Shown: in pieces, positions 4,941-52,749 of the stretch
How positions within the stretch are numbered: position 1 is the stretch's first letter
Layout: each line of letters opens with the position of its first letter
Assembly (NCBI GenBank): GCA_027487795.1
Contig: JAIYCX010000039.1
Coordinates: 355,811-419,810, forward strand
Length of the DNA: 64,000 nucleotides
Origin: Pseudomonadota bacterium
GTDB lineage: Bacteria; Bdellovibrionota_C; UBA2361; SZUA-149; DAOLCO01
Direction of reading: 5' to 3'
Position numbers and translations under genes: made by a program
Notes under the pieces: model-generated
Seen by the model: the letters and a program-made list of their open reading frames with translations, nothing else
Database searches by the model: none
Told to the model about the DNA's origin: nothing

Positions 4941-4956
4941 AAACTAACGCTAGGCG

Positions 4957-7363: not shown

Positions 7364-7969
7364 GTGTTTAATATTAAAAAAAATATCATGTTTTTTTTCT
7401 CTATAATGCTAGGTATTAATACTTTCAGTACGGTATTACATTCTGAAGATTTAAAAGTAGAGGATACTTTTAAATCTAAACCCAGTGATCTTTATCTAAT
7501 TCCATTAATAACTAACGATGGTAAAAAAACTACCCTTAAGCAATATGAGGGTAAAGTACTACTGATCTCTAATACTGCTTCTGAGTGTGGCTTTACTTAT
7601 CAGTATAAAGATTTACAAGCGCTGTATATCTCATATCAAGACAAAGGTTTCTCAGTACTTGGTTTTCCAAGTAATGATTTTGGTGAGCAAGAACCTGGAA
7701 GCGATTTAGAAATTAAAACATTTTGTGTGAAAAATTATGGTGTAACTTTTCCATTATTTCAGAAAGGATCCGTTTCTGGTGAAAATATTCAGCCTTTATT
7801 TAAATTGATAAATGAAAATTCTAATGAAGAATTTCAAGGTCCTATAGAATGGAACTTTGAAAAAATAGTAATTGATAAAAAAGGAGTTATTAGAGGTAGG
7901 TTTGGATCTTTTGTAAATCCATTAAATCAAAAAATTACAACTCTAATAGATAAATTATTAGCTGAATAA
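7364..7969 (+). CDS. Glutathione peroxidase family protein (BtuE/GPx-like), secreted
   Basis: Motifs NTASECGFTYQY and FPSNDFGEQEPG. N-terminal signal peptide. Confidence 0.8.
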   Translation: MFNIKKNIMFFFSIMLGINTFSTVLHSEDLKVEDTFKSKPSDLYLIPLITNDGKKTTLKQYEGKVLLISNTASECGFTYQYKDLQALYISYQDKGFSVLGFPSNDFGEQEPGSDLEIKTFCVKNYGVTFPLFQKGSVSGENIQPLFKLINENSNEEFQGPIEWNFEKIVIDKKGVIRGRFGSFVNPLNQKITTLIDKLLAE

Positions 7970-11552: not shown

Positions 11553-11736
11553 ACAAAACCCCTAATTACTAACTTTTCTTCATAAGAGAAGTTCTTAAGT
11601 AATCGTCATATCTATCAGAATGCTTTAGCAGGGTTTAATTTAAATCTGTAAATATTCAAATTTATGCAAAAATTTTTTTAATTTAGCGATAACCAAAGGA
11701 GTTTTAAATTAACAAACTAAAATAAAGTATTAAAAT

Positions 11737-12093
11737 ATGTCTTCAATAAGCCATCTAAATGCCATAAATCCAAAAGAAACTAATACTAGTACAGTCACTC
11801 TAGTGAATAGTACTGAGAATCAACAAAATAAAACTCATACATTTCAACAAAGCCTAGACAAGGCTTCTAGTATAGAAAAGACGTTTATAAATGGTATTAG
11901 CGCTCTTGATCAGTCTTTTAGAAGTACAGAAGTTAAAAGCGCAGCATTAGTAAAAAACCTTCCTAGTGAATATAAAGGTCTATTTGAATTACAACTCAGT
12001 GTCTACAAATGTAATTTTCAAACAGAAATCGTTACTAAAGTAGGTGAGTCTGTTCAAGGTGCAATTAAGAAACTCCAAAATCAAGCAGGTTAA
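11737..12093 (+). CDS. Small protein resembling the type III secretion inner-rod / FliE family (SctI/YscI-like C-terminus)
   Basis: 118 aa. The C-terminal LFELQLSVYKCNFQTEIVTKVGESVQGAIKKLQNQ aligns by eye with the YscI/FliE C-terminal helix. Sits immediately upstream of the sctRSTU genes. Confidence 0.3.
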   Translation: MSSISHLNAINPKETNTSTVTLVNSTENQQNKTHTFQQSLDKASSIEKTFINGISALDQSFRSTEVKSAALVKNLPSEYKGLFELQLSVYKCNFQTEIVTKVGESVQGAIKKLQNQAG

Positions 12094-12106
12094 CTAGGGA
12101 TTACAA

Positions 12107-12556
12107 ATGGACTCACGCGTACTTAAATTAGCTAAAATTTCAGAGAATCAAAATTTTTCTACCATTAGTGTTCAGGGTAAAAAATTATTAAATCAACGAC
12201 AAGAAATAGTTAAAAAGCAAAATAATCTAAAACTTGCTGCTGAGCAATTATTAAATGTCTATAGAGAGGTTTCTAATACTGAAGTTCAAGTTGATTCAGT
12301 TTCCTTAAAAGAAAAACATAAGTGGGCAACTCGGGCACTAAATCTGAAGCTTCTAAGTGATGATAAAGCGAATTCTTTAAATTCCGAAATAACAACACTA
12401 GAAAATGCTATTTATAAAAATAATATTAAAAAGCTTAATTCAAAAAATAAACTCAAAGAACAAGACATAAAAATCAAATCCTATAAACAAATTGAATTAA
12501 TTAAAAGGACAAATATTGAGTTAGAAGATTTAATTGAGGTTAAATTATATGTCTGA
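12107..12556 (+). CDS. Coiled-coil protein, possible SctO/FliJ-like stalk component
   Basis: 149 aa, no TM helix, heptad-rich. Position directly upstream of sctR. Confidence 0.25.
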   Translation: MDSRVLKLAKISENQNFSTISVQGKKLLNQRQEIVKKQNNLKLAAEQLLNVYREVSNTEVQVDSVSLKEKHKWATRALNLKLLSDDKANSLNSEITTLENAIYKNNIKKLNSKNKLKEQDIKIKSYKQIELIKRTNIELEDLIEVKLYV

Positions 12557-13334
12557 TTTATTTAATTCAGGAACAGGATCCTCATCTATTCCTTATATTA
12601 TCACATTATTTGCACTTGGTTTATTACCATTAGCGTTAATGGCAACAACTTCATATTTAAAAATATCTGTAGTTTTATCTGTGCTAAGAAATGCTCTAGG
12701 CGGAGGACAGATCCCATCTCAAGCTTTAAGCGGTGTATTAGCGCTTTTAATAAGTGCTTATACAATGAGTCCTGTATTTGAAAAGTGCATAAATAACTTA
12801 TCTGTTGATGCTCAAAATAAGAATATAGTGAAAAATATCCCTAAGACAATAAACTCTTCAAATATAGAATCAGTAATAAATAAAATTAAATTTACTACTG
12901 AGCCTCTTGTCTTATTTTTGAAATTGAATACTGGTCAAAAAGAGAGAATTTATTTTACTTCTTTACAGCTAAATAGATCAACAAAAACACTAGATGATAA
13001 CGAAAAACCAAAATTACTAGATTGTCAGTTAGGGAAGAATGATAAAATATATGACGATGGTTTTGAAAATTGTATCGCTCCACATGAATCTATATCGAGT
13101 TTAGTACTATCTTTTGTAAGTTCAGAATTAAGGTCTGCCTGCACGATTGGGGTTTATTTATTTATCCCATTCTTAGTTGTTGATTTAATAATATCTACAA
13201 TTTTAACGGGAATGGGGATGATGATGGTTAGTCCTATTACAATCTCCTTACCATTAAAACTTCTACTTTTTGTACTAAGCGATGGCTGGAGATCGCTAAT
13301 TGAAAGCTTGGTACTTTCATATAAGGTATTATAG
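12534..13334 (+). CDS. sctR: Type III secretion export apparatus protein SctR (FliP/YscR family)
   Basis: LMATTSYLKISVVLSVLRNALG and the near-invariant FIPFLVVDLIISTILTGMGMMMVSPITISLPLKLLLFVLSDGW. No long FliP-type signal peptide. VSP and LLLF residues match YscR better than FliP. Carries a roughly 45-aa insertion. Confidence 0.8.
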   Translation: MRLNYMSDLFNSGTGSSSIPYIITLFALGLLPLALMATTSYLKISVVLSVLRNALGGGQIPSQALSGVLALLISAYTMSPVFEKCINNLSVDAQNKNIVKNIPKTINSSNIESVINKIKFTTEPLVLFLKLNTGQKERIYFTSLQLNRSTKTLDDNEKPKLLDCQLGKNDKIYDDGFENCIAPHESISSLVLSFVSSELRSACTIGVYLFIPFLVVDLIISTILTGMGMMMVSPITISLPLKLLLFVLSDGWRSLIESLVLSYKVL

Positions 13335-25957: not shown

Positions 25958-28900
25958 ATGGGGGAATTTAGTAATAAAAATGGGCAGGTTATAGCTCCTT
26001 CCTCTGACATTGAGGTAGGGAAAGACACGCCCTTAACTCTCCCTAGTGCGCCAGATAACAACCAAGATCAAAGTCAAAAAGACTCACTTAGCTTTCCCAA
26101 ATTAGACCCAAATGTCAAACTTAATACAAAATCAGAAAAACTCTTAGAAGAGCTTGCGATCTCCTTAGGCAATGCTAAATTCGACCGTGGCTTTAACATG
26201 ACCTTAGGCCAAGCCACTCACGATAATAATAACTACTCATCTCGACTACAAGTAGCAAATCAACAGATCTCAGATTTAGAACTAAAGATAAAATTTGAAC
26301 TAATAAAAAGTAACACTGCTCCCGAAGAACGAAAAGCCCAATTTGATAAGGTACAAAAATTTGCCGCTACGCGTGAGCATGAAGGACTGAATCAATTCCA
26401 AGCAGCAAAAACTGAGTACCAAAGAAGAACAGTTCAAGAAGCTGAAAAAGCAAGAAGAGAAGGAGGAGCAAGTTACGCACTAGGGGAGGTATTAACAAAA
26501 GCCACAAAATCAGCCTCTAGTCTTATTCCAACAACTAAAGAATCTGTAGAAATATTAAGCAGTGCAATATTCTCAGGCGGGGAAGGAATAGAAAAAGTAA
26601 GACTTAAAAACCTCTCACAAAGAGGAGAGTCCGTTCTTGGAACAACAGAAGAGTTTGCTAAAGGAAGTAATTCATCATTTAGCAATGCAGTCGCCCTAAT
26701 TGGAGTAGGCCTAGCCCCACTAGAGAAGGTATCAGGGATGACCCTAAACCCAGCTCTAGAGAGTGTAGACATTGGCCTTAGAGCCTCAAGAGTTGCAAGT
26801 TATAATACATTTTCGGGTAAGGATGCTCAGATTAATTACAGTGACTATAAAGAGCTAGAAGATAGAGAAGGTCTACTAAAAGCAGCGAAGCTTACTATGG
26901 ACGGTGCAAAGATAGCACTAGGAGCAGCAGCTCTTGGACCTAGCTCTTTGTCTCAATTAAGTCAGCCCATGTTAGTCTCGGGAGGGATGGGGTATGCCGG
27001 TGCCTTATCAGATGAGCTACTATCAAAAGAAGGTTTTAAATTAGGACGCTTTTTAGAGCATGGTTTTACTGGGACAGCAGATAGTTTTCTGTTCATGGGT
27101 GGGATTACGGGAATTGGGCATATAGCAGAGAAGACTGGAGCACTACATAAGATGTCATCTGTAAAGACATTCTTAAGTCTTGAGAATGGCGTTCAGAAGG
27201 AGAAGAAACTAGAGGCTATTCATAAAAGCTTTAAGGGACTAGAGATTACAAATGATGAGGCAAGGTTTGTAAGTAATCTAGTGGGTGAGATGAAAATGGG
27301 GCTAAGTGGGAAAATAGACCTGATTGATTCTCTACCAGATGTACAAAAAAGTCTGAATATTTTTTTAGAGAAGGTAGGAGATTTAAGCGCGCTAGAGATC
27401 TATGAGAAGCTTAAAAAGGATCCAGAGTATAGAAGGATGTTGGCTGGGGCAGTACTTAAGGTTGGAGTATCAGGGTTTGATGCTTTTGATGTTAAGAGCG
27501 GGACTAAGGGGATGGAGAGTCTGGAACAAACAGGAAGGATGGAAGATGGGAAGGAATTAGGGAAGTTTGTATCTTCTAAGAGTGGGAACTTAGAGAGTAA
27601 TGGGGACTTAGATTTTAGAAAAAATGGTGAGAGTATTTCAATTACCAATAGAGGAGAAGTTCCTATAGAAGTTCTTGCAGTTAATGGTAACGAATACAAA
27701 GGGTACTTTACACATACTAGAGATTTCTTTTATTTATTAGATAGAGAAGATCTTTCTTTAGCATACGGGGATATCTTAACATCAAGACAAGAAGTCGATC
27801 CAAACGGGACAGAGCATGTTGAATCATTTGTCGATAAAAATACAAAGCTAATTTTTTCTTATAAACAAAATAAAGAAAATTTATTACAAGAGAAGAAATG
27901 GAGAAGTTCTTTATTAGCACATGAGAATGAAAATAGGTCTGATATACTAGCTGGTAGAGCAGTTGATGAGAGGCGCTCATTTGAAACTCAGTTTCGATTT
28001 TTGGATAAGAATATAGATCAGGTTACTTTAAATAAAAGAATAAATGGTATCTTAGAGAGTAGTTATCTGGGGGCGGAAGGCTTGAGTTTGGCGGCAAGTA
28101 AAAAAGATAATATCGAATCAACTATCAATTTTCCTGAATTAGAATATATTTTAATTAATCTACAAGATCTAGTCAAAGAAGATAATTTTGAAGAAGGTGC
28201 TATTGAAAAACTGGACGATCTAATAACTCCTGGGAGTAGCAAACTAGTTGCACAGGGAATACTTACCTTAATAAGAAACTCTTCAAATCAATTATCTATT
28301 AAGATTTTAGACAACTTAGAGTTAATTTGCGCATATTTGATCTCATGTGATAACAACCAGATATCACGACCTATCTCTGGTATCATAGTATATGAAATCT
28401 TGCCGACGCTCTGTCAGGATACAAATGTTTCTCCATATATAAGATTAAAAGCAAAGACTATTCAAGAGAGACTAGTGTGCGAATCCTACTCATCATCTTT
28501 TGATCCTCGCTCAGTAAATAACGAAATAGGCGGCAAAGCTATATATGAAGATTCACCATTCTTTCCTGAAAGAGTTACTCTAAAAGATATCGCTAGAATT
28601 CGCAAATTAGCCAAGGATACTATATTTATCTGTAGAGAAGACGGCACTCCTGTTGCATTTAGTTATAGTTATGAAAACATTAATTCTGGAGACCCTAACT
28701 TATTGCAGCCTAGGCTATTAAAATCACTGAGAGATGAATTAAAACAGATAGAGCAAGGGGAACTTTCAAATCATATTTTACCTTGGGTAGCAATGGATCT
28801 TTATAGACATGAAGTATTATCTGGATTTTCTGAAGATTCTATAGAAGAATTTATGAACAGGATTATGCCTTCATCAATACCAAAAGAGATGATTACAGAG

Positions 28901-30487
28901 CTAGAGAAGGAATTATTTTATAAAAATATATATTTGCATAGGAGTATATATTCAAAATTAGTAATGATATTAGAAGAATTAGAAGATTCAAAAAAAGTCT
29001 TAACAGATGAAAGCAATGAAGCACCACTCGATAGCCAAAGTAATACCCAAGGTAGTATCGTAAATCCTTATTACTTCGATCCTAGTAAATATAATGAGCG
29101 AGAAAATCTTAAGGCACTGTATTTTAATGAAATGGATAATGAAAAGCTTAAACTAGTAAGACGTGAATTTGCAAATATTTTTCACGAAGAAAACTTTAAC
29201 GATGACCCGCTATATGACTTACTATCTTTAAATGAAGTTTATATATATTCCGATGATATGTACAATGCTCGTAATATTTGGGGAAATTACCTACGTAATG
29301 GACAAGAATCAAGCTTAAGCAAATTTAGGGCAGCTTTAAGAGAACGCTTAGATCACTTAATTTCATTAACAAACCAAACAAGAAGTACTTTCAATATACT
29401 AATGGATCTAGAACAAGAACGTTCGGAAGTATTCCCATTTAAAACTGAACATATTGAAAATCTATACTCCTTATTTCAAGAAGTACATCAAGGACCATTA
29501 AGATCTCATATTGAAGCTGAATTTGATATCGATCTTTCAGAAATAACTTTCAGATCACAGTTATATTTTCTTCAATTTTTACAAACTAGAGATACTGAAG
29601 GATTTATTGCATTTAAAAATGCTTTAAATAAATATCCTAATCAGAAATATAAAATTATAGAAGCCTTTGTTGCTAATGCAGAAAAGGCAACATATGCGAA
29701 ATATTTAATAGCTTTACCAAATAATTTACCAGAAACAATAGTTTCAAAAATCTTAGATAAATATCTCGAAATAATAGAATCCGCACAAGGGCTAGAAGAA
29801 CCACAAATACAAAAAGCCATCCGCTCAGCAAATCACTTTTTACATGCATATTCTATTAAAGCTAGATCTTCGGATAATCCAGAAAAAGTTATACTAAACC
29901 TAAACAAGCTCCATCATGAAATTCTAGCACTAGGAGTCCTAATAAGAGACTTAAGACGCACAGGTGCAATTAGTAATATTACTGATTTGCAAGGTCTTCA
30001 ATTTTCTTCCACATGCTCAAAAGATATTACAGATGATATTCGAAATGAAATAGCTGAACTATATCGCAGTAACTGGGAAAGTGATGCCTCATACAGTACA
30101 GAACATCGTGAAAAAGTTTTAGCAGCTCATGACAGGGCTATGAAGAATCCTGATACAAAGATCTACTCTTTTGAAACTAGCTCAGAAGTTCTAGCTTTTA
30201 TCAGAGTTGATTATCTTCCAGATGGCACAATTCACATGGGGGGATTGAATCAACGTCCAGAATTAGACCTTTCCTCTATAGGTATAACCTTACTCGAAGA
30301 AGTTATAAAACTAGAAAATCTTACTTCTGATATATTTATTGAAGTTACTAAAAAGAAAACTGAATTAATAGTTCAATATGAAAAGCTTGGATTTGTTATA
30401 GAAGCAGACAAAGTTATTATAAATTGGGAAGGAACAGGTGCGGATTTAGTAGTAATGCGCTTGCCTAGAGGTTCAATTATAAAGTAA
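25958..30487 (+). CDS. Very large (1509 aa) protein with C-terminal GNAT-type acetyltransferase domain; candidate secreted effector/toxin
   Basis: Long uninterrupted ORF with host-like AT-rich codon usage. No signal peptide. Ser/Asn/Gln-rich N-terminus. C-terminal GNAT motifs (...IHMGGLNQRPELDLSSIGITLLEEVI... and ...QYEKLGFVIE). Confidence 0.7.
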   Translation: MGEFSNKNGQVIAPSSDIEVGKDTPLTLPSAPDNNQDQSQKDSLSFPKLDPNVKLNTKSEKLLEELAISLGNAKFDRGFNMTLGQATHDNNNYSSRLQVANQQISDLELKIKFELIKSNTAPEERKAQFDKVQKFAATREHEGLNQFQAAKTEYQRRTVQEAEKARREGGASYALGEVLTKATKSASSLIPTTKESVEILSSAIFSGGEGIEKVRLKNLSQRGESVLGTTEEFAKGSNSSFSNAVALIGVGLAPLEKVSGMTLNPALESVDIGLRASRVASYNTFSGKDAQINYSDYKELEDREGLLKAAKLTMDGAKIALGAAALGPSSLSQLSQPMLVSGGMGYAGALSDELLSKEGFKLGRFLEHGFTGTADSFLFMGGITGIGHIAEKTGALHKMSSVKTFLSLENGVQKEKKLEAIHKSFKGLEITNDEARFVSNLVGEMKMGLSGKIDLIDSLPDVQKSLNIFLEKVGDLSALEIYEKLKKDPEYRRMLAGAVLKVGVSGFDAFDVKSGTKGMESLEQTGRMEDGKELGKFVSSKSGNLESNGDLDFRKNGESISITNRGEVPIEVLAVNGNEYKGYFTHTRDFFYLLDREDLSLAYGDILTSRQEVDPNGTEHVESFVDKNTKLIFSYKQNKENLLQEKKWRSSLLAHENENRSDILAGRAVDERRSFETQFRFLDKNIDQVTLNKRINGILESSYLGAEGLSLAASKKDNIESTINFPELEYILINLQDLVKEDNFEEGAIEKLDDLITPGSSKLVAQGILTLIRNSSNQLSIKILDNLELICAYLISCDNNQISRPISGIIVYEILPTLCQDTNVSPYIRLKAKTIQERLVCESYSSSFDPRSVNNEIGGKAIYEDSPFFPERVTLKDIARIRKLAKDTIFICREDGTPVAFSYSYENINSGDPNLLQPRLLKSLRDELKQIEQGELSNHILPWVAMDLYRHEVLSGFSEDSIEEFMNRIMPSSIPKEMITELEKELFYKNIYLHRSIYSKLVMILEELEDSKKVLTDESNEAPLDSQSNTQGSIVNPYYFDPSKYNERENLKALYFNEMDNEKLKLVRREFANIFHEENFNDDPLYDLLSLNEVYIYSDDMYNARNIWGNYLRNGQESSLSKFRAALRERLDHLISLTNQTRSTFNILMDLEQERSEVFPFKTEHIENLYSLFQEVHQGPLRSHIEAEFDIDLSEITFRSQLYFLQFLQTRDTEGFIAFKNALNKYPNQKYKIIEAFVANAEKATYAKYLIALPNNLPETIVSKILDKYLEIIESAQGLEEPQIQKAIRSANHFLHAYSIKARSSDNPEKVILNLNKLHHEILALGVLIRDLRRTGAISNITDLQGLQFSSTCSKDITDDIRNEIAELYRSNWESDASYSTEHREKVLAAHDRAMKNPDTKIYSFETSSEVLAFIRVDYLPDGTIHMGGLNQRPELDLSSIGITLLEEVIKLENLTSDIFIEVTKKKTELIVQYEKLGFVIEADKVIINWEGTGADLVVMRLPRGSIIK

Positions 30488-30489
30488 TG

Positions 30490-31764
30490 CTATAAATCAG
30501 TAATTGTATAAGAATCAGCAGATAATTGCTCTAATACCTTCTCTGATATCATTCCTTCTCTTACTGTAGAATATGGAATTAGAATTTTTGTATTTTTTTT
30601 GGTTTTTGTAATATTTGCAATACCTTCTCTCAGAATATTTATCTCATCATTATAGTTTAAAACTTTTCTATCTATAAGAAAGTTATGAATAAGTGGAACT
30701 TTTTTATCTAGTCTAAATTCTAGTAGAGCTAATATCTTATCATTCCAAATCGCTAGATGGCAGATACTACTATCTGGGATGATAAATTGATCAAGCATTT
30801 TATGTCTACCTTCTGTTACAAGTTTTTCAACAAGGTATTCTCTAGCTCTAAAAAACATATCACTAGTTTCACATTTACGAAGCATAAAACCAGTATTCTT
30901 AATATCAGGCATCGGTGCTTTATTTATTAATAAGAGTAAACTAGTAAGTTCTTCAACTTCATCTGTGGTAAAATTCTCAGCCGCATTAGCTAGTTTATCC
31001 GAAAATATTTCTATTAAATTATTGTAAATACTTAACCCATTATTAGTTAAAGAATAAATCTTCTGTCGTTTATCTCCCTTTGGTGAAAATTTACTAATAA
31101 TATTATTATTTTCAAAATCACTTAGGTATCTAGAAATCTTACTTGTAGAAAAAGGCAGGTTATCATCTAAATCTTTAAATCCTATCCCAGATTTGCTTTT
31201 TGCTATATCATTTAAAATTTGAAACTGAGTTAAGTTAAACTCATTTCCCATATAACTTTCACCTAACATACCTAAGGCAATTACTGCTCTTCTCTGTTCT
31301 GGTGCAAACAATCCTTCCCCTTCGCGAAGTTTTTCAGGGGGTGCTTTTAAGCCATTATTTAGTTTACGAAACAACTCAACCATCCGTAAATGTTCCCTTG
31401 GGGATAGTAAGCTGCAGCCTAGTTGTGAAATACGACTATTTAATTGATCTGCTTCAGTTAGAAGTTTTGTTCCATATTCAGTGAAAACTAAACGACGACC
31501 ACGTTTGTCTTCAAATGTTGTTTCCATACTAAGACAACCCATGCTTACTAGCTGATTTAAAAGTCTTGAAATCTTACTTTTTGAAATTCCTAGTAAATTA
31601 ACTAAGTCACTAGCAGATCTATTTGTATCGTATGCGAGGTGCGATAAAATTATGGATTCAACTGGAGACAAATCAGAAGGCAATAACATCCTAATAGCCC
31701 TCATTTTGCGCTGAGTAAGCAGGATTGAATCATGCAATTGAGTATATATATTTAGTGTAGCCAT
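30490..31764 (-). CDS. Transcriptional regulator with two MarR-type winged-HTH domains and an extra C-terminal domain
   Basis: Two repeats of the wHTH pattern (SDLVNLLGISKSKISRLLNQLVSMGC...RGRRL and FKDLDDNLPFSTSKISRYLSDFENNNII...DKRQKIYSLT). Confidence 0.6.
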   Translation of the reverse strand: MATLNIYTQLHDSILLTQRKMRAIRMLLPSDLSPVESIILSHLAYDTNRSASDLVNLLGISKSKISRLLNQLVSMGCLSMETTFEDKRGRRLVFTEYGTKLLTEADQLNSRISQLGCSLLSPREHLRMVELFRKLNNGLKAPPEKLREGEGLFAPEQRRAVIALGMLGESYMGNEFNLTQFQILNDIAKSKSGIGFKDLDDNLPFSTSKISRYLSDFENNNIISKFSPKGDKRQKIYSLTNNGLSIYNNLIEIFSDKLANAAENFTTDEVEELTSLLLLINKAPMPDIKNTGFMLRKCETSDMFFRAREYLVEKLVTEGRHKMLDQFIIPDSSICHLAIWNDKILALLEFRLDKKVPLIHNFLIDRKVLNYNDEINILREGIANITKTKKNTKILIPYSTVREGMISEKVLEQLSADSYTITDL

Positions 31765-31765
31765 G

Positions 31766-31960
31766 TTCGTATTTTATGATGATAGTTTTATAATAATAGT
31801 TTCATTCCGATATGCAATTATAAACTGGAAGTACTTAGTAATTATAAATCTATAAATAATATAGCTATTTAGACATTCTAAAACTCACATCAATAATCAT
31901 GATCAAATCAGTATAATACTACTAGATCGTCGGTGCGCGATGGGAATTGAAGCGCTGATA
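31766..31960 (+). repeat. Promoter-like repeat A, copy 1 (roughly 195 bp, 55-bp core identical to the copy at 33480-33534)
   Basis: taatagtttcattcc...aatcagtataatactactagatcgtcggtgcgcgatgggaattgaagcgctgata. The core contains an extended -10-like cagTATAAT. Confidence 0.6.
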
Positions 31961-32230
31961 TCTATGGCTCTTCCTAATGTTGAGTTCTTTATATTATTAT
32001 TTGGGTATAAGATTTTTCTGCTGTTCTCTCTTCGGCTGCATTAGAGATGGTTTAATCCCTTGCTCTGGCCGTCTCTTATTCAATTATAAATTTACTTTTC
32101 ATAATTAATTTCAAACAAAGTTAATAATGAAGAGAGAAAGAATAAATTAAGGTTATTGTTTTAAGTGGTTTTAATAAGGTTAGTTATTTACTTGAGCATA
32201 TCTAATCCATATTTTTTATTACGATAAGAT

Positions 32231-32312
32231 ATTCCGTTGAAAATAATATTTGCATTTCATAGAGTTTGAAATATTTTAATTCTATGAAATGCGATTTGCA
32301 TTATCCGGAATG
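32231..32312. promoter_or_regulatory. Nested imperfect palindrome (candidate operator or large hairpin) in the leader of the exonuclease cassette
   Basis: ATTCCG...GCATTTCATAG-(19 nt)-CTATGAAATGC...CGGAAT. Direct repeat CCGTTGAAA at both flanks. Confidence 0.25.
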
Positions 32313-32372
32313 TCCTACCGTTGAAAGGATACGCTATTGAGGGCATTTAATTTGCCCTAGAAAGAAAGTATT

Positions 32373-32891
32373 ATGAAAATTTTTTCAATCGACGCCGAAG
32401 TCGATGGACTGTACGGACCATCGTTCGCCATTGCTGTCACCGTCCGCCAGGACGGTGTAGAAATTGCGAGCTTCCAAGGAAGGATACCTGATGACGGAAT
32501 CAAGGATGGGTGGGTGAGGGAGAAAGTTCTCCCAGCCCTGAGTGACATGAAAGTCACGCATCAGACCACCGAGGCCCTCGAGGAGGCCTTCTGGGCCTTC
32601 TGGAGTGATCAAAAGGAAGGTTCCACCGTGATTGCCCACTGTGGCAGTCCGGTTGAGTCAGGACTCTTTCGGCGATGCGTCGAGAGAAATTTCGCCGAAC
32701 GACAATGGAACGGACCATTCCCACTTCATGAAGTGGGAACACTGCTCCTCGCAGTTGGGGCGGACCCCGGCAGCGTTGACAACTACAACAAAAGGCATGG
32801 CCTAGTCGTTCCCTTTGCAGGGGTGGCGCACCACCCCATGTACGATGCGGCTGCTGCCGCGGTTGCTTGGGAACACGCTATCGCTAAGTAA
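32373..32891 (+). CDS. GC-rich small DEDDh-type (DnaQ/Orn-like) 3'-5' exonuclease, probably horizontally acquired
   Basis: Exo I motif FSIDAEVDGLYG and Exo III motif HHPMYDAAAAA. GC far above the surrounding DNA. Confidence 0.6.
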   Translation: MKIFSIDAEVDGLYGPSFAIAVTVRQDGVEIASFQGRIPDDGIKDGWVREKVLPALSDMKVTHQTTEALEEAFWAFWSDQKEGSTVIAHCGSPVESGLFRRCVERNFAERQWNGPFPLHEVGTLLLAVGADPGSVDNYNKRHGLVVPFAGVAHHPMYDAAAAAVAWEHAIAK

Positions 32892-32940
32892 AGTAAAAAG
32901 CTCTGCTTAGAATAAAAAACTAAGCAGGAGTTAAAATAAC

Positions 32941-32992
32941 TAAACCCACTCAGCCTTGATTAAAGTTAATCTAATTCGCTGAGTGGGTTTTT
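32941..32992 (+). terminator. Rho-independent terminator after the exonuclease gene
   Basis: AAACCCACUCAGC-(loop)-GCUGAGUGGGUUUUU. A second smaller hairpin GCUCUGCUUAG...CUAAGCAGGAG lies at 32900-32930. Confidence 0.5.
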
Positions 32993-33023
32993 CAAAAGGT
33001 ATATAATTATTCTTTCTCTTTCT

Positions 33024-33137
33024 TTATTATCTTTACCTTGACTCCACCCCATTTTGCGATTTCCCATCGCGAGCTTATTTCTTAGCCTAACATAATACGA
33101 AAGTTGTATGTATCTTAGTTTCATCAAAGTGGGGTGG
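33024..33137. repeat. MITE-like 114-bp element with 23-bp terminal inverted repeats, copy 1
   Basis: TACCTTGACTCCACCCCATTTTG ... CAAAGTGGGGTGGGCTGAAGGTA. Second copy at 34693-34806. Confidence 0.5.
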
Positions 33138-33159
33138 GCTGAAGGTAGTATCAAAAAAT

Positions 33160-33355
33160 ATTAAGCACTATATATCCTAATCAGTTCGCTTTCACTATCC
33201 AACCAATTATACTTATCATTAATAGCATCAAGCCCATTTTTACCTAGGCTGATTCTTTTATCTATGTAGGAATAAGAATTCTCTATACACCTTGCCGCAT
33301 ATTCCAGATTACCGGATTCAAAAACGTATCTACAGTTTGTTTTCAGTTCATTATC
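33160..33355 (-). pseudogene. Diverged in-frame remnant (64 codons plus stop) of the C-terminus of the GT4 glycosyltransferase gene at 34820-35998
   Basis: Reverse-complement translation ...NCRYVFESGNLEYAARCIENSYSYIDKRISLGKNGLDAINDKYNWLDSESELIRIYSA* versus the intact gene ...NCGYVFESGSPESAARYIEKAFLSKEERDLLGQNGLKAINDKYNWSISEKELIKIYSA*. Same position relative to the MITE-like element. Confidence 0.55.
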
Positions 33356-33534
33356 ATAATTTTAGAATAATAGTTTCATTCCAGTATGTAAACATATACT
33401 GAAAATACTCAACGATAATAAATCTCTCACTAATATAATAACTTAGATATCCTAAAACTCAAATCAATAATTCCGATTAAATCAGTATAATACTACTAGA
33501 TCGTCGGTGCGCGATGGGAATTGAAGCGCTGATA
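33340..33534 (+). repeat. Promoter-like repeat A, copy 2
   Basis: Same architecture as 31766-31960. Identical 55-bp core at 33480-33534 containing the -10-like TATAAT. Confidence 0.6.
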
Positions 33535-33970
33535 ATCAAAAGGCTGAGAAAGACGGGTAGAGAGTTTGATAAGGTTAAGGCTGCAAGTACTAAGTTAAGA
33601 AAGCAGACCTTACTAAATGTTAAAATTCTAGAGAACAAGCAGTGTTAAAAAACACAGCAGGGGTTCTTTAGAACAAAGGTTTTGTTAAACGTTTGCAAAC
33701 TCAAAAAACATCTTTCTTCTCTATAAAGAAGAATCAATAAATTCTTTTTTATAGAGGATTAAAAATCCTGAGTTTGTGTTCTTTATATTATTATTTGGGT
33801 AGAAGAAAGCATAATTGCTCTTGATAAACTGAGTCACTAAAAGTTTTATAAACTAAGAGACTATAAAAAAACAAAGTGAAAAGTTTAACAAGAGCGGTGA
33901 TTTTTGGTTTTGGTACTCTGCTTTTGAAGAGTACCGAGGTTTTATCGCTCGTAAGAGCGAAGGAGAAAAA

Positions 33971-34561
33971 ATGAGAAAGAAAAAAGGAACCCTGCTTGCT
34001 TATCGCAAGCAGGGTGGTTTTATAACAGAGATTCAATACGGAGAGCACGGTGCTCTTTTTATCGAAAAAGTTGAATGCAGAACTGTTTCAGTTCTGCATT
34101 ATGGTTGGTATCAAGATGGCGGTTATAGGCCGTCTGTCAGATATGATGTCTCACGGACAGCTATGATGTGCCACCATCGGTGGCTGGAAACGGGGTACAA
34201 TTGGACCCCAAAACCAGTGGCCTTTGCAAGGGAGCATTGCGAGGATGTCGAATTATCAATTGCTACCGGCGATGGATATTTCGATTTGCAGAATAGAAAA
34301 GTCTCCGGCTGGTGGCTTTCCGTAAAGGAAGCTACCTTGGAAAGGAACTCTTTTAGAAGTTCCCGCTTTGAGCGGGATTACTTCAAAAGAAATTACCCAA
34401 GAGGTAATTGCCATAATTGCGGATTCGACTTGCAAGAACACTTCCAAAAAATCCGCCAAGATGGCGGATATGTCTACCGACTGGAGGAGGGTTCTTCAAC
34501 CTTCCTGTTTGATTGGGAGGCACATGACCGACCAAGGGTAATGAATACCCTTCTCCCTTAA
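33971..34561 (+). CDS. GC-rich hypothetical protein with Cys/His clusters (possible zinc-binding), probably horizontally acquired
   Basis: 196-aa ORF with about 50% GC. CHHRW, CEDVEL and CHNCGF clusters. Strong AGGAG Shine-Dalgarno. Hairpin-rich 5' leader. Confidence 0.5.
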   Translation: MRKKKGTLLAYRKQGGFITEIQYGEHGALFIEKVECRTVSVLHYGWYQDGGYRPSVRYDVSRTAMMCHHRWLETGYNWTPKPVAFAREHCEDVELSIATGDGYFDLQNRKVSGWWLSVKEATLERNSFRSSRFERDYFKRNYPRGNCHNCGFDLQEHFQKIRQDGGYVYRLEEGSSTFLFDWEAHDRPRVMNTLLP

Positions 34562-34596
34562 AGTTCTCCTAGAAGGGATATAGGCTGAACTGTTTA

Positions 34597-34640
34597 TGAG
34601 CAGTGACAGCCAACGAATGTTGTATGTCACTGCTCTTTTA
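34597..34640 (+). terminator. Rho-independent terminator after the GC-rich hypothetical gene
   Basis: GAGCAGUGACA-(loop)-UGUCACUGCUC followed by UUUUAAAAAU. Confidence 0.5.
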
Positions 34641-34692
34641 AAAATATTTAGGATATGGAAGTCTACTATTCTTTCACTATCTCGATATTTAC

Positions 34693-34806
34693 TACCTTGA
34701 CTCCACCCCATTTTGCGATTTCCCATCGCGAGCAAATTTCTCGGCCTAACATATGACCATAGTCAAATGTATCTTAGCTTCATCAAAGTGGGGTGGACTG
34801 AAGGTA
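34693..34806. repeat. MITE-like 114-bp element with 23-bp terminal inverted repeats, copy 2 (immediately downstream of the GT4 stop)
   Basis: TACCTTGACTCCACCCCATTTTG ... CAAAGTGGGGTGGACTGAAGGTA. Confidence 0.5.
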
Positions 34807-34819
34807 GTATTCAGATATA

Positions 34820-35998
34820 TTAAGCACTATAAATCTTAATCAATTCTTTCTCACTAATCGACCAATTATATTTATCATTAATAGCTTTAAGCCCATTTTG
34901 GCCAAGTAAATCTCTTTCTTCTTTTGATAGAAATGCTTTTTCTATATACCTTGCCGCTGATTCCGGACTACCCGATTCAAAAACGTATCCACAGTTTGTC
35001 TCAAGTACAATTCTTTTTAAAGGTTCTGCATCTGAAACTAACACTGGCTTAGCAAGTGCCATATATTGAAAAAGTTTATTTGGTATGGTGGTATTTATGA
35101 ATTCATTATTTAAATGAGGAACTAAGCATAGATCTGAGTTATATATTAACGTGGGCAACTCACTAAACGAAACCCAACCAGAAAAACTTATACAATTTTC
35201 TAATTTAAGTTTTGTAACAAGTGCTTGCAGTACGCTAAGATAATTTCCTGAACCTACAATTACTAATTTTATAGAATTATTTCCGCGATTACTTAGAATA
35301 TGAATAGCATTGATTATATCTTCTAATCCGCGCTCTATCGTAATCACTCCAGCATATAAAAGTACAAACTCTTTTTGCTTTTCTTTCTTTAACAAAGTAT
35401 TGTCTGTCATAAACTGCTCTAAATCCACAGTATTACTAACAACAAATATTTTATCTGCTGCAATTCCTTGCTTAATTAATCTATCTGCTTGTTCCTCAAC
35501 AACCAAGATAATTTTATCAAATACCTTAACAGAAAACCATTCAACTAATTTTGCTATTCGATAATTTTTAAAAACTCTCGTTTTCCAATCAACCTTACCC
35601 CAGCCCTTTAGTGCTTCTGGATAATTTTCCCACATGTCTAAAACTATAGGGATTCTTAAAATTCTTCCTACAAACCATACTGCTGGAGCTAGTGCGATAT
35701 CTACAACTTGAAGTGCTTGAATTTTATTTTCTATACAAAAAGATACTAATTGAAAAATCCAAAGTGGATTAAAGAAAATTGGAAATTTTAGAATTTTATT
35801 TACTGTTCTACTTTTGAAAGTTGGTATTAGTCTTCTTACATTAATACCATTGTATATTTCATTTGATAGTTTGAAATCACCATAGTTATTACAAAATACG
35901 AAAATTTCATGCCCTGCTGATATAAGGCTTTTTGCTTCTTTTTCTATTCTTTCAGCTGGAGGGAACTCTCCTCCTTGGTATACAATACATATTTTCAT
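34820..35998 (-). CDS. Family 4 (GT-B fold, GT1-type) glycosyltransferase
   Basis: C-terminal EGFGL-type region (…AKPVLVSDAEPLKRIVLETNCGYVFESGSPES…). 392 aa. Confidence 0.75.
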   Translation of the reverse strand: MKICIVYQGGEFPPAERIEKEAKSLISAGHEIFVFCNNYGDFKLSNEIYNGINVRRLIPTFKSRTVNKILKFPIFFNPLWIFQLVSFCIENKIQALQVVDIALAPAVWFVGRILRIPIVLDMWENYPEALKGWGKVDWKTRVFKNYRIAKLVEWFSVKVFDKIILVVEEQADRLIKQGIAADKIFVVSNTVDLEQFMTDNTLLKKEKQKEFVLLYAGVITIERGLEDIINAIHILSNRGNNSIKLVIVGSGNYLSVLQALVTKLKLENCISFSGWVSFSELPTLIYNSDLCLVPHLNNEFINTTIPNKLFQYMALAKPVLVSDAEPLKRIVLETNCGYVFESGSPESAARYIEKAFLSKEERDLLGQNGLKAINDKYNWSISEKELIKIYSA

Positions 35999-36056: not shown

Positions 36057-37223
36057 ATGAAGAGACTATTATATATCTCACCTGGACCAGTTCCGCCAAG
36101 TTTAGATAAGAGTTTAAATAAATTCATGGCGTTGTCTGAAATTCTGACTGGTGACGTGCTTGAGCCTATTTGGTGGAATAGCGATAAGGTTGGAATTGAA
36201 AAATTAGGTAAAGATAATTATCCAAATTATCAAATAGGTAATTTTACTTATCGACTATTTCCTCTAGATCGATACCCCAAAGTCTTAAAGAAATTTGTTA
36301 GAATATTTTTCTATATTTTAAAAGCTAGAAAGCTTATAAAAGAAAATGGCTCATATGATTATATTATGACGTATGGAACCAATTCGACTGGTCTTGCAGC
36401 GTGCATAATAAAATTATTATACGGCGGTAAACTTATAGTTGAAATCCCAGGTGTCCCAGAGGATGGTTCTTTATATGATAAAAAAGAAAGAACGATATTT
36501 GATGTAAAAAATCAAATATTTAATAATCTAATGCTATACCTTGTCGGAATTTGGGCAGATATTTTCAAACTACTCTATAAAAATCAATTACATCGTTATC
36601 CAGTTCTCAAAGATAAGTTATCAGCTATATTTCATGATTTCGTTCCTACTCAAAAAATAGAGATGGAACCAATAGCAGATATGGAATATACTGTACTGAT
36701 AGGATATCCGTGGTATCGAAAAGGTGCTGACTTATTAATAAAAGCATTTCATCAGTTTCTATTAGAATATCCTGAAACAGATTTTAAAATAAAAATCATC
36801 GGTTGGATTACAGATCCTGAGTACCTAATAGAATGCAGTAAAGGAGATAAACGAATAGAAATAATCCCTCCAGCCCCGCAATCTGAAATATTTAAGTATA
36901 TAGCAAACTCTAGTTTTTTAACGATCCCTTCAAGAAGTGAAGCAATGGGTCGAGTAGTATTAGAAGCTATGGCTGCATCTAAGGCAGTTTTAGGTAGTAA
37001 CGTAAATGGGATACCAACTTATGTTACTAATAATGAAACTGGTCTGCTTTTTAAGTCAGATGATGTAAATAGTTTGTATGAAAACTTAAAGCTGTTGATC
37101 TTAGATAAAGAACTAAGGCAAAAATTGGGTCAGAATGCTTATAAAGTCTTGAACAAAGAACATAATGAAAAAGCATATGTTAAGAAATTCAAACAAATGC
37201 TTTATTTATTAGATAATAAATAA
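36057..37223 (+). CDS. Family 4 glycosyltransferase (second GT4 of the cluster)
   Basis: EAMGRVVLEAMAASKAVLGSNVNGIPTYVTNNETGLLF motif. Start taken at MKRLLYISPGP; the ORF-track start at 36003 is also possible. Confidence 0.7.
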   Translation: MKRLLYISPGPVPPSLDKSLNKFMALSEILTGDVLEPIWWNSDKVGIEKLGKDNYPNYQIGNFTYRLFPLDRYPKVLKKFVRIFFYILKARKLIKENGSYDYIMTYGTNSTGLAACIIKLLYGGKLIVEIPGVPEDGSLYDKKERTIFDVKNQIFNNLMLYLVGIWADIFKLLYKNQLHRYPVLKDKLSAIFHDFVPTQKIEMEPIADMEYTVLIGYPWYRKGADLLIKAFHQFLLEYPETDFKIKIIGWITDPEYLIECSKGDKRIEIIPPAPQSEIFKYIANSSFLTIPSRSEAMGRVVLEAMAASKAVLGSNVNGIPTYVTNNETGLLFKSDDVNSLYENLKLLILDKELRQKLGQNAYKVLNKEHNEKAYVKKFKQMLYLLDNK

Positions 37224-51294: not shown

Positions 51295-51505
51295 TTAGCC
51301 AATAATGCCTGGTATCCTGGCTTGCAGTCATCCTACTAAGAGACAATCCTTCCCAAAATTTGCTCTATTTAAATAATAAATAGGAAAAAATCAGTGGACA
51401 TGAATAGAGTCTCTATTCGTCGTGCATACAGTTGCGGGGCAGCGAAAGATTTTAACTTTACTTCCCAGAGAGAATATTAATACAGTTAATATTAGTACTC
51501 TCTAT
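51295..51505 (-). promoter_or_regulatory. Cobalamin (AdoCbl) riboswitch in the btuB leader
   Basis: Minus-strand RNA contains GGGAAGUAAAGUUAAAAUCUUUCGCUGCCCCGCAACUGUA (consensus GGGAA..GGUG.AAAUCC...GUCCCGCAACUGUA). The downstream B12 box is AAGCCAGGAUACCAGGCA (consensus AGYCAGGAGACCUGCC). Confidence 0.6.
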
Positions 51506-51603
51506 TCATAAAATTTTTATAATCTTATGAAAAACATAATTGGTGCTAGTTAAAATTAACTAGCATAGAATAACTAACACTATATATATTTATGGTAAAG
51601 TAC

Positions 51604-52749
51604 TTAGTCTTTTTGAGTATTATTAGACTCCGCCGGTAATACGTCTGATGTATTCTTAGTATTTTTTTCTTCTACTAATGGCTTATCTTTTAAAGCCTCG
51701 ATAACTCCTAGTTGTTTCAACAAATCGTTAGTATCTAACTTTTGTACTGATAAACCTGATGAATCGTTTATTACTACAAATTTAGGATTTGCCTTAATCA
51801 ACTGTTCTGCTATCTCCATTTTAAGAATAGCTTCTCCTCCTGGGCCGCTAAGTGCTTCCGTTCTTTTTCTTAGTCCCTCAAGATTTTCTGCACCTACTGC
51901 TTTTATTCTATCGGCTTCTAAAGTTTTTGCTTTTAAATATGAATTTCCTCTCAAAGTAGCTTGATCTTTTCTACCTCTAGCTTCTTCGTTAGCTCTATTA
52001 ACTTTTGCTAAAGCCTCGTTAAATTCGATTTTCTTTTGCTCTATTACAGAGGCAATTCTTTTCTTTTCTTGCTCAGTTTCCTGATTCGTAGCCTGAGTTT
52101 GATCTATTTTTTGTTGATAGCTGTCATCAATACTATCTTTTTTAACTCTTTCAAAACGGTGTCCTTTATAATTAACTGCATCAATTATTATTCCTTCTGC
52201 ATTTAGACGAGCATTCATTGCGACTTTAGTCCTATCAAGCCCTTCTTGTCTTTTTTCTTGTCTGAAAAAATCTCTTGTAGAAAGTGTATTTAAATGAGTC
52301 CTAATATCTGCTCTTGCCACAGCAGATACTAATTCGTGTATTCTCTGTTTCATTTTTGTTTTATCGCCTGAAACATACTGTATAATATGCGCGACTTTTG
52401 TAGGATCGATATGATAGTGAACTGTCAAAGAAAGTAAAACCTCATTTCCGTCTACAGTTCTAGTTTGAACAGCATCATCAAATTTCTTACCGGATTGCAT
52501 GTCCTTATGCTCACCCCAACTTATAGTTTGAACTGTAGTATCTATCTTATATAGTTCTTCCCATGGCATAACTAATACAGCAGGTCCTGGAACCAATACA
52601 GTTGATTTTACTCCGCCACCTAGAAAAGTTGGAAGCTTAACAAATTCTACTCCATATTCTCCTGGTTCTAAAGTTTGATAACCAGTATCACAGGCAGATA
52701 AACCAAATAATGAAATTACCGCTATAATTGTAATTATATAATTTCTCAT
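51604..52749 (-). CDS. SPFH/band-7 domain lipoprotein
   Basis: Lipobox LSAC. SPFH core followed by a long coiled-coil. Confidence 0.55.
   Translation of the reverse strand: MRNYIITIIAVISLFGLSACDTGYQTLEPGEYGVEFVKLPTFLGGGVKSTVLVPGPAVLVMPWEELYKIDTTVQTISWGEHKDMQSGKKFDDAVQTRTVDGNEVLLSLTVHYHIDPTKVAHIIQYVSGDKTKMKQRIHELVSAVARADIRTHLNTLSTRDFFRQEKRQEGLDRTKVAMNARLNAEGIIIDAVNYKGHRFERVKKDSIDDSYQQKIDQTQATNQETEQEKKRIASVIEQKKIEFNEALAKVNRANEEARGRKDQATLRGNSYLKAKTLEADRIKAVGAENLEGLRKRTEALSGPGGEAILKMEIAEQLIKANPKFVVINDSSGLSVQKLDTNDLLKQLGVIEALKDKPLVEEKNTKNTSDVLPAESNNTQKD

Follow-up and report, generated by a model that had tools for sequence, protein, structure and literature searches.

A candidate array of hairpin-rich cassettes beside a MarR-like regulator and a large GNAT-domain protein in a metagenome-assembled bacterial genome

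Among described systems, integrons and CALINs (clusters of attC sites lacking integron integrases) come closest to the locus reported here: small unrelated accessory genes form a one-directional array beside a divergently transcribed conserved gene, hairpin-forming elements stand at the cassette ends and the content varies between close relatives, all of which applies to this locus or to its related arrays as well. A second point of comparison is offered by hammerhead clusters and DUF3800-associated RNA motifs, which lie intergenically in neighbourhoods of unknown function (Weinberg et al., 2017, PMC5737381). We analysed a 64-kb stretch of a metagenome-assembled genome (MAG; contig JAIYCX010000039.1), here called the window, in which a preliminary description made from the letters alone had seen two cassette-like units at the 3' end of a glycosyltransferase gene of the GT4 family. 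Two unrelated, GC-rich open reading frames (ORFs) are framed there by the same two repeat blocks, and both units are saturated with local hairpins, coding sequences included. Our overall explanation, to which we give a probability of roughly 0.55, is a two-cassette array anchored by two genes, one for a MarR-like regulator read in the opposite direction and one for a large GNAT-domain protein; it would have gained its second unit by one homologous recombination event and may produce hairpin-armoured messages.

The layout reads as the regulator on the reverse strand, then repeat A copy 1, leader 1, ORF1, a terminator and repeat Y copy 1, then repeat A copy 2, leader 2, ORF2, a terminator and repeat Y copy 2, which runs into the GT4 gene on the reverse strand. 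The modules of the array are:

31764-31960, forward strand: repeat A copy 1, 197 bp, the intergenic region between regulator and cassette; 82% identical to copy 2
31905-31960, identical to 33479-33534, forward strand: core, the final 56 bp of A, with TATAAT at 31912-31917 (copy 1) and 33486-33491 (copy 2) and a 5' stem-loop
31936-31946 and 33510-33520, forward strand: 11-mer CGCGATGGGAA, in both cores
31972-32012 and 33766-33806, forward strand: leader motif, 41 nt, 88% identical
32373-32891, forward strand: ORF1, 172 amino acids, DEDDh/RNase T-fold exonuclease-like; GC 56%
32899-32995, forward strand: two stem-loops 3' of ORF1, the second (32942-32990) followed by TTTTT and read as the terminator of unit 1; folding z −6.6
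33008-33342, no strand assigned: repeat Y copy 1, 335 bp, inverted-repeat element plus truncated GT4 3' end
33034-33056 and 33125-33150: arms of inverted-repeat element 1, 23-26 nt
33061-33071 and 34720-34730: complement of the 11-mer, in the 41-bp blocks of repeat Y
33161-33352, reverse strand: GT4 remnant, a truncated 3' end whose reading frame is kept for about 62-64 codons with no stop; 63% amino acid identity to the real C-terminus
33338-33534, forward strand: repeat A copy 2, 82% identical to copy 1
33535-33970, forward strand: leader 2; z −15.7 for 33499-33970 (12 shuffles)
33971-34561, forward strand: ORF2, 196 amino acids, an orphan Cys/His-containing protein with Shine-Dalgarno GGAG; GC 46%
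34598-34639, forward strand: terminator of unit 2, arms 34598-34614 and 34619-34635, then TTTT
34667-35001, no strand assigned: repeat Y copy 2, inverted-repeat element plus 3' end of the intact GT4 gene
34690-34715 and 34784-34809: arms of inverted-repeat element 2, 23-26 nt

The preliminary description had proposed two units of one architecture, and this holds: both repeat blocks occur twice and frame two unrelated ORFs, each with a terminator. Its repeat of about 195 bp with an identical end is recovered as repeat A, its 23-bp leader motif corresponds to 24 exactly matching nucleotides (31984-32007 and 33778-33801) within the 41-nt motif, and each of the strong rho-independent terminators that it claimed is present as a hairpin with a T-run (32942-32995 and 34598-34639). 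The self-comparison and copy count that it had suggested returned exactly two occurrences of each repeat in the window (chance expectation 0), and none further in the viral and Joint Genome Institute (JGI) metagenome contigs, where the core and the inverted-repeat element gave either nothing or chance matches of 21-24 nt. Outside the core, the two copies of repeat A are 74% identical, and an identical run of 56 bp has a probability of about 7e-8 per start. The copies of repeat Y are 80% identical overall and 77% outside a 41-bp identical block (probability of such a run 2e-5 per start), which is the left arm of the inverted repeat. Against backgrounds of 74% and 77%, identical runs of such length are not to be expected, which shows core, left arm and leader motif to be under selection in both units; the comparison of the two copies establishes core, leader motif and left arm as putative cis-acting elements maintained in both units. 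The leaders have only the 24-41-nt motif in common, and its distance from the core differs between the units.

Each repeat Y consists of the inverted-repeat element, a 10-nt spacer to the GT4 stop codon and the last ~62 GT4 codons. The element is about 120 bp long, its 26-nt arms (TACCTTGACTCCACCCC.../...GGGGTGGRCTGAAGGTA) are 88% complementary, and the two copies fold as DNA with z scores of −3.3 and −6.4. The 11-mer CGCGATGGGAA of the cores and its complement in repeat Y account for four occurrences only in 64 kb, so placed that an inverted pair brackets each cargo. Thermodynamic prediction gave a pairing probability of about 0 for a 5'-3' RNA panhandle formed through these 11-mers, as local hairpins win. 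Since a long-range duplex is not predicted, the 11-mer is more likely to serve as a shared protein-binding site or a small stem-loop. The TATAAT of the core, which had been described as an extended −10 (cagTATAAT), does not deserve that name, as it is preceded by cag without TGn and lacks a good −35; a second conserved promoter-like pair, TAGACA-16-AATAAT, lies just upstream of it (31870-31897 and 33444-33471). Taken together, the shared 5' module, cargo ORF, terminator and inverted-repeat element suggest that each unit would be a self-contained transcription unit.

The ATG within the core opens a short ORF in both units, at 31940-32041 (forward strand, 34 amino acids, MGIEALISMALPNVEFF...) and at 33514-33648 (forward strand, 44 amino acids, MGIEALIIKRLRK...). 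The two share their first 7 residues alone and have no obvious Shine-Dalgarno sequence; they could be a leader peptide or chance. Leader 1 additionally contains an imperfect inverted repeat with 28-nt arms at 32239-32305, 70 nt 5' of ORF1, which has no counterpart in leader 2; the surrounding region, 32176-32325, folds with a z score of −5.5.

Folding was assessed for each ORF as the z score of its minimum free energy against 100 shuffles each, and perfect hairpins were counted from a stem of at least 6 bp, their expected range running from the dinucleotide-shuffle mean to the codon-shuffle mean:

ORF1: z −5.9 (dinucleotide) and −5.8 (synonymous-codon); 5 perfect hairpins, expected 0.8-1.6
ORF2: z −8.4 (dinucleotide) and −7.7 (synonymous-codon); 8 perfect hairpins, expected 1.0-2.5
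GT4 control: z −0.6 (dinucleotide) and −0.2 (synonymous-codon); 2 perfect hairpins, expected 1.8-2.0
Regulator control: z −0.6 (dinucleotide) and −1.0 (synonymous-codon); 1 perfect hairpin, expected 1.2-1.4
Large-protein control: z +2.3 (dinucleotide) and +2.4 (synonymous-codon); 1 perfect hairpin, expected 1.4-1.8

Whole units fold at z near −10. When the 64 kb were scanned in sliding 150-nt windows, 19 of the 34 most structured ones fell within 32176-34800. At least 10 genomes of different GC content show the same excess in their ORF1 homologue. Homologues at least 57% identical to ORF1 gave z scores of −5 to −17 (−14 when other shuffle sets are left aside) and exceed the GC content of their own locus by 10-22 points, whereas distant homologues from Firmicutes, Actinobacteria and a phage-like contig scatter around z 0 (+1.5 to −3.3) with mostly host-like GC. 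In a 13-sequence alignment, 40 local pairs are 90% paired, and 38 double-change cells were counted, compared with 15 ± 3 in shuffles (0/500) and 5-17 in slid controls. The consensus folding energy is only −24 kcal/mol, compared with −220 to −300 kcal/mol for single sequences. As most structure is lineage-specific, selection seems to act on general structuredness rather than on one specific fold.

The phage-like sequence is a 51-kb Logan contig (L009-L011; loci are numbered with the prefix L) with many small same-strand ORFs and Cpn10 at one end. Its ORF1 homologue, at 65% identity, has a z score of +1.2 and zero perfect hairpins, which shows that hairpins do not simply follow from the protein that is encoded. 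Beyond the array, isolated 150-nt windows with z of about −5 were found at 36976-37125, in the 3' part of a second glycosyltransferase gene, and at 51451-51600 and 51676-51825, near the start of the gene at 51604.

Three genes flank the array or belong to its setting:

25958-30487, forward strand: large protein, 1509 amino acids, with a C-terminal GNAT acetyltransferase domain; GC 35% (host-like), no excess structure
30490-31764, reverse strand: double winged-helix (MarR-like) regulator, divergent from the array
34820-35998, reverse strand: intact GT4-family glycosyltransferase (Pfam Glycos_transf_1 and Glyco_transf_4), which forms the distal flank; its composition is host-like and its folding shows no excess

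The regulator matches Pfam MarR/HTH_27 at residues 30-97 and 176-254. It has zero homologues among 5.8 billion proteins or the GTDB species representatives and is homologous to the regulator of locus L005 (E 9e-24). Over its C-terminal ~300 amino acids, the large protein is homologous to its counterparts that precede the ORF1 homologues of L005, L014 and L007; a five-member profile of these proteins matches GNAT structures (3fnc, E 1.5e-8), and four of the five members contain Pfam Acetyltransf_1. No domain was found in the N-terminal ~1200 amino acids with Pfam, NCBIfam, PADLOC, PHROGs or PDB sequences. A defence-system label was considered and rejected, as the PADLOC match to the regulator runs through the winged helix-turn-helix (wHTH) domain only and a Csx20-like match to an L014 cargo is weak.

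Homologues of ORF1 stand beside homologues of the regulator/large-protein pair in at least 8 other genomes, which come from Oligoflexia, five phyla of the Candidate Phyla Radiation and unclassified bins. In an Oligoflexia MAG (L013), an ORF1 homologue with 74% amino acid identity is preceded by a MarR-like gene in divergent orientation and by the gene for a large protein whose C-terminus holds a GNAT domain. The three-part layout of regulator, large protein and ORF1 also occurs in a metagenome contig of 56% GC and in contigs of Saccharibacteria, Paceibacterota, Komeilibacteria, Nomurabacteria and unclassified bins. A regulator homologue is upstream of and divergent from the ORF1 homologue in L013, L014, L015, L017, L019, L020 and L028, and structured ORF1 homologues have the large protein upstream in 5 further genome loci. 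Across loci, the large proteins are homologous to one another, and so are the regulators. Neither partner was found at unstructured ORF1 loci (0 of ~40). Scans of L005, L007, L014, L015, L017, L018, L019, L020 and L028 located sharply bounded, GC-elevated structured islands of 1.5-9 kb that start just past the regulator in 9 of 9 cases. No leader motif common to all arrays was found. Judged by these neighbourhoods, the conserved anchor is the pair of divergent MarR-like regulator and large GNAT-domain protein, not GT4. GT4 was also tried as a conserved distal flank and rejected: the window gene has no tblastn match in L013 at E <= 1e-3, though the annotation of that locus includes a GT4-family gene. 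Compared with L013, the window has an ORF1 that is 74% identical, a regulator at about 25% and a large protein at 27%; we take this as a sign of exchange between phyla.

Close relatives among these loci suggest how such arrays change. L014 and L017 have regulators that are 96% identical. In L017, a leader is followed directly by the ORF1 homologue, whereas L014 has a leader, a 2.2-kb segment of four ORFs and a hammerhead-like motif, a second leader and then the ORF1 homologue, the two 181-nt leaders being 97% identical. L017 in turn carries a 2.6-kb insert after its ORF1 homologue, flanked by 118-bp repeats that are 99% identical, and L016 has a further, different insert. Three 80-nt leaders running into the start codon are found in L020, and short hairpin modules are repeated between cassettes in L015 and L019. 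Cargoes besides ORF1 are almost all array-specific and include a DEAH/HA2 helicase, a TerC protein, a kinase-HD protein and small GNATs. The length of an array evidently changes by entire cassettes at a time, with copies of a boundary module on either side, the same topology as repeats A and Y have in the window. In this respect the earlier idea of a cassette-like array of self-contained units is borne out, since related arrays gain and lose whole cassettes between boundary repeats.

Several further observations concern the related arrays. A second regulator copy in L014 (13605-14342, forward strand; 33% amino acid identity to the first) flanks a structured island at 10800-13100 on the opposite strand, and the regulator-plus-array unit is thus duplicated there in mirror orientation. 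The hairpin module GGAGAAGCTTTTGGTTAAAAGCTTCTCC, in nearly the same form, separates cassettes in L014 (7179-7218 and 7706-7745), which belongs to an unclassified bin, and in L015 (2809-2849 and 4473-4513), which belongs to a Saccharibacteria MAG. The inter-cassette hairpin of L019 has a similar CTTGGTC loop, with compensatory changes between its two copies. Type-III hammerhead-like motifs with CUGAUGA...GAAA cores (E 5e-7 to 2.5e-4, just under the Rfam gathering score) were located between cassettes in L014 at 7742-7796 (forward strand) and at 11029-11107, 11550-11628, 12520-12573 and 12865-12919 (reverse strand), and in L016 at 4945-5023, 5464-5542 and 6436-6489 (reverse strand). One of the L014 motifs lies directly 5' of the internal 181-nt leader copy, and cleavage there would give the same 5' end as that of the promoter-proximal copy. 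DUF3800-IX RNA matches above the Rfam gathering score lie just beyond the arrays in L014 (9589-9657), L016 (3503-3571) and L017 (12337-12405), all on the reverse strand.

ORF1 has 141 homologues, which form a distinct family of about 175 amino acids with a patchy distribution across phyla; Pfam, NCBIfam, PHROGs and PADLOC returned zero matches. An AlphaFold2 (AF2) model built with an alignment (predicted local distance difference test, pLDDT, 94.5; predicted template modelling score, pTM, 0.90) adopts a DnaQ/RNase T-like fold, and a Foldseek search against the PDB retrieved RNase T (4kb0, E 7e-5), the DinG exonuclease domain and the PolC exonuclease (E 7e-5 to 1e-4, TM 0.6-0.69). Residues D7, E9, E95, H153 and D158 are invariant in 39 sequences. 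By its predicted fold, ORF1 is a DEDDh/RNase T-like, exonuclease-like protein, in line with the preliminary description; as read from the alignment, the Exo II position is seemingly taken by E95 within a P-V-E-S-G motif, so that the middle acidic residue would be a glutamate. ORF2, which had been described as a Cys/His-rich unknown, is indeed an orphan. A word-indexed protein search gave only the self-match, exhaustive HMMER searches one spurious repeat-motif match, and Pfam, NCBIfam, PADLOC and PHROGs zero matches; a single-sequence AF2 model (pLDDT 32) is uninformative. Since an open frame of its length arose in 1 of 5000 shuffles, we regard ORF2 as a probable true gene. It is unrelated to ORF1.

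The window as a whole has a GC content of 33.6%. The array lies among housekeeping and polysaccharide-synthesis genes, and the sole tRNA of the window, tRNA-Leu(GAG) at 22465-22548 (reverse strand), stands beside secG without repeat or island features. No Rfam match (riboswitch, ribozyme or small RNA) was obtained at E <= 1 over 31000-35500. The cargo genes had been called foreign; they are compositionally distinct, as stated, yet a recent arrival does not fit, since ORF1 adjoins the regulator also in the distant Oligoflexia MAG and in genomes of the Candidate Phyla Radiation (CPR).

As to how the second unit arose, only one novel joint is present in the locus: at about 33335-33345, the left end of A is fused to GT4 codon −64 with some 4-6 nt of microhomology; the left end of A copy 1 abuts the regulator start codon. 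The upstream GT4 copy had been described as a diverged, in-frame remnant and the downstream copy as the intact gene end, which we confirm. Over 62 codons, remnant and intact end differ with a synonymous divergence (dS) of 0.60 and a ratio of nonsynonymous to synonymous divergence (dN/dS) of 0.38. We infer that one recombination between homologous boundary modules added unit 2, either by unequal crossover or by Campbell-type single-crossover insertion of a circularised, diverged copy of the locus with a different cargo. Either route would yield A-ORF1-Y followed by A-ORF2-Y and leave a single truncated GT4 end where the two units meet. Non-functional parts would have drifted to 74-77% identity, since the event or already between donor and recipient, while core, leader motif and left arm of the inverted repeat would have stayed identical. 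Given the identities of 74% for A and 77% for Y and the dS of the remnant, either the event is old or unit 2 came from a diverged homologous locus. Because the interiors are unrelated, plain duplication is not enough, and a donor with different cargo or a later replacement is needed.

Several points weigh against this explanation or limit it. The genome has no close relative in any collection searched (exact-protein look-ups led only to short unitigs from the same samples), and direction and mechanism of the event are deduced from topology only. The left end of A lies within ~5 bp of the regulator start codon, which is surprising for a random unequal crossover; a breakpoint at this position could hint at a defined site. 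The dN/dS of the GT4 remnant fits an old duplication and a diverged donor alike. The promoter is a consensus match, and promoter-like sites are not enriched (17 compared with 11.5 ± 3.2 in shuffles). The hairpin stems are mostly Watson-Crick and the difference between sense and antisense is largely compositional, which singles out neither the sense RNA nor the DNA or antisense strand as the acting molecule. Finally, the compared loci were found through ORF1, so that its appearance as the constant cassette is in part ascertainment.

The explanation that survives best beside our own, although we regard it as improbable, is an ordinary tandem duplication followed by non-homologous replacement of the interior, with the hairpins as a neutral by-product of template switching or of an unknown GC-rich donor. 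In its favour, a plain tandem duplication would have this topology, and template switching would leave stems such as those seen, most of which are perfect Watson-Crick palindromes; strand asymmetry is weak and ORF2 is an orphan. However, the hairpin excess survives synonymous-codon shuffles, the hairpins covary, and the excess is present in ORF1 homologues of at least 10 genomes of varied GC while being absent from distant ones. The islands are also sharply bounded and always beside the same two gene families, and the identical blocks of 41-56 bp indicate selection on both units.

Slightly less probable still is the proposal of the preliminary description, namely successive site-specific capture of promoter-bearing cassettes at the GT4 3' end with duplication of the target end, as in tRNA-targeting islands. 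An intact GT4 end and a displaced remnant do flank unit 2 in the order known for integration at gene 3' ends, an inverted-repeat element closes each unit, the left boundary of A falls sharply at the regulator ATG and related arrays show cassette turnover. Yet domain searches of all ORFs of at least 110 amino acids between 15282 and 47413 (~15 kb each way) detected no integrase, transposase or other recombinase domain, in agreement with what the preliminary description had itself noted. The duplicated "target" measures 335 bp at 80% identity where a short, near-identical att site would be expected, and a second duplicated block, the 197 bp of A, comes from the region upstream of the regulator and not from GT4. 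With one joint only, no recurrent core can be demonstrated, and neither an att core nor an attC site was seen; for core and element, neither the rest of the window nor the viral and metagenome collections yielded a further copy. Other genomes tie the array to the regulator and large-protein side, and the one joint is explained by one crossover. Neither capture at the GT4 end nor GT4 as an insertion target is therefore upheld.

We consider it very unlikely that the inverted-repeat elements are miniature inverted-repeat transposable elements (MITEs) inserted independently beside the GT4 ends and mediating the rearrangement. Being ~120 bp long and ending in inverted repeats of 23-26 nt, they have the MITE-like shape that had been described, and that part stands, but there is no sign of mobility: just two copies exist in 64 kb, both within one continuous duplicated block that reaches into GT4 at the same identity, no target-site duplication or flanking direct repeat is visible in the sequence, viral and metagenome collections give only the 21-24-nt chance matches, and no transposase is nearby. 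A degenerate integron remnant, or CALIN, with the 114-bp inverted-repeat elements as attC sites can practically be set aside. An imperfect hairpin element of ~120 bp does follow each ORF and both ORFs point in the same direction, but there is no IntI, the sequence itself, read over 33028-33156 and 34687-34815 with no attC model applied, shows neither R''/L''-L'/R' boxes nor GTTRRRY at the 3' boundary of the element, and each cassette has its own promoter-like core, a leader of ~400 nt and an intrinsic terminator, the elements being contiguous with the duplicated GT4 end. Equally negligible is a metagenome assembly artefact joining two strain alleles: the genome is a MAG and the identical blocks of 41-56 bp break short-read unitigs, whose ends fall within them, but the copies of A and Y are 18-26% diverged, k-mer assembly cannot make the unique joint of truncated GT4 and A with its ~4-6 nt of microhomology, and independent Logan unitigs of two sequencing runs match the array at 100%, so that the repeats are real.

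Returning to the two-cassette array on the regulator and GNAT protein, its way of working can be outlined tentatively. The MarR-like regulator would control the array promoters in the cores, and hairpin saturation would shield the mRNAs from single-strand-specific RNases, 3' exonucleases or Rho. In conditions or hosts that destroy ordinary mRNAs, accessory nucleic-acid enzymes could then still be made, ORF1 being the constant one among them. Such regulator-controlled, nuclease- or Rho-resistant "armoured" mRNAs are a possible working mode of the array, though we would not call it the probable one. It is tempting to speculate, with still less assurance, that the loci represent a new element class: regulator-anchored arrays of horizontally exchanged cassettes whose whole transcripts are selected to be hairpin-saturated, so that the messages would withstand an abundance of nucleases. 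The array itself may bring this about, since its constant member, ORF1, is RNase T-like and a DEAH/HA2 helicase and a kinase-HD protein are among the other cargoes. In its boldest form this idea would have the messages act outside the producing cell. The large GNAT protein would be dedicated to the array and serve it in modification, in expression or in the exchange of cassettes. Most hosts are either CPR episymbionts, for which a life on other bacteria has been described, or assigned to Oligoflexia.

Full-text literature, curated families and defence models yielded no description of such arrays, and the family is apparently undescribed and found mainly in CPR bacteria and Oligoflexia. Protein-coding genes that spend synonymous sites on dense, covarying local hairpins (z −6 to −17) are very unusual. 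If real, the arrays would constitute an undescribed platform for accessory genes in two groups whose mobile elements are poorly known, and a natural system in which to learn how mRNA structure protects or controls expression. They also bring up uncharacterised players, namely the RNase T-like family, a GNAT protein of more than 800 amino acids and the orphan Cys/His protein. For annotation, they warn that "foreign GC-rich ORFs" of this kind are not simple recent transfers into a glycosyltransferase gene. The cassette idea of the preliminary description survives; its readings of GT4-targeted capture, a MITE and recent foreign DNA do not.

Compared with known systems, the locus resembles a tandem duplication or Campbell-type insertion in that both boundary blocks are directly repeated around one novel joint, with a truncated inner and an intact outer gene copy; it differs in its unrelated interiors, which imply that different cargo was carried or later acquired, and in the conserved sub-blocks, which show both copies to be functional. 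Integrative islands end in an integrase and are bounded by short, near-identical att repeats from the target alone, unlike the integrase-free array with its duplicated 335 bp. The inverted-repeat element recalls MITEs as a short non-coding element, and departs from them in being co-duplicated with an adjacent gene end and in having no dispersed copies in the sequences seen. ORF1 shares with RNase T/DnaQ-like DEDDh exonucleases the predicted fold and the invariant N-terminal D-x-E and C-terminal H-x4-D, and stands apart by the apparent Glu95 and by its lack of a curated family. The hammerhead and DUF3800 neighbourhoods overlap with the related loci, in that L014 and L016 have several type-III hammerhead-like motifs and L014, L016 and L017 a DUF3800-IX motif. 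In contrast, hammerheads occur in one array lineage only, the window array has no Rfam match, and structure in the arrays covers coding regions.

Integrons are the nearest concept, yet they fail on every defining feature tested. The array has no tyrosine recombinase and no attI/attC architecture. Integron cassettes are promoterless and served by a common promoter, Pc, whereas the units here each have their own predicted −10 core, a 410-440-nt leader and a terminator. The boundary repeats of the arrays are homologous modules of 118-197 bp, their coding sequences are hairpin-saturated, and their partners are a wHTH regulator and a large GNAT-domain protein. The window combines all three features by which we propose to recognise the family, that is, the regulator/GNAT pair, a structured and GC-elevated island and repeated boundary modules, the last of which are repeated also in L014, L015, L017, L019 and L020.

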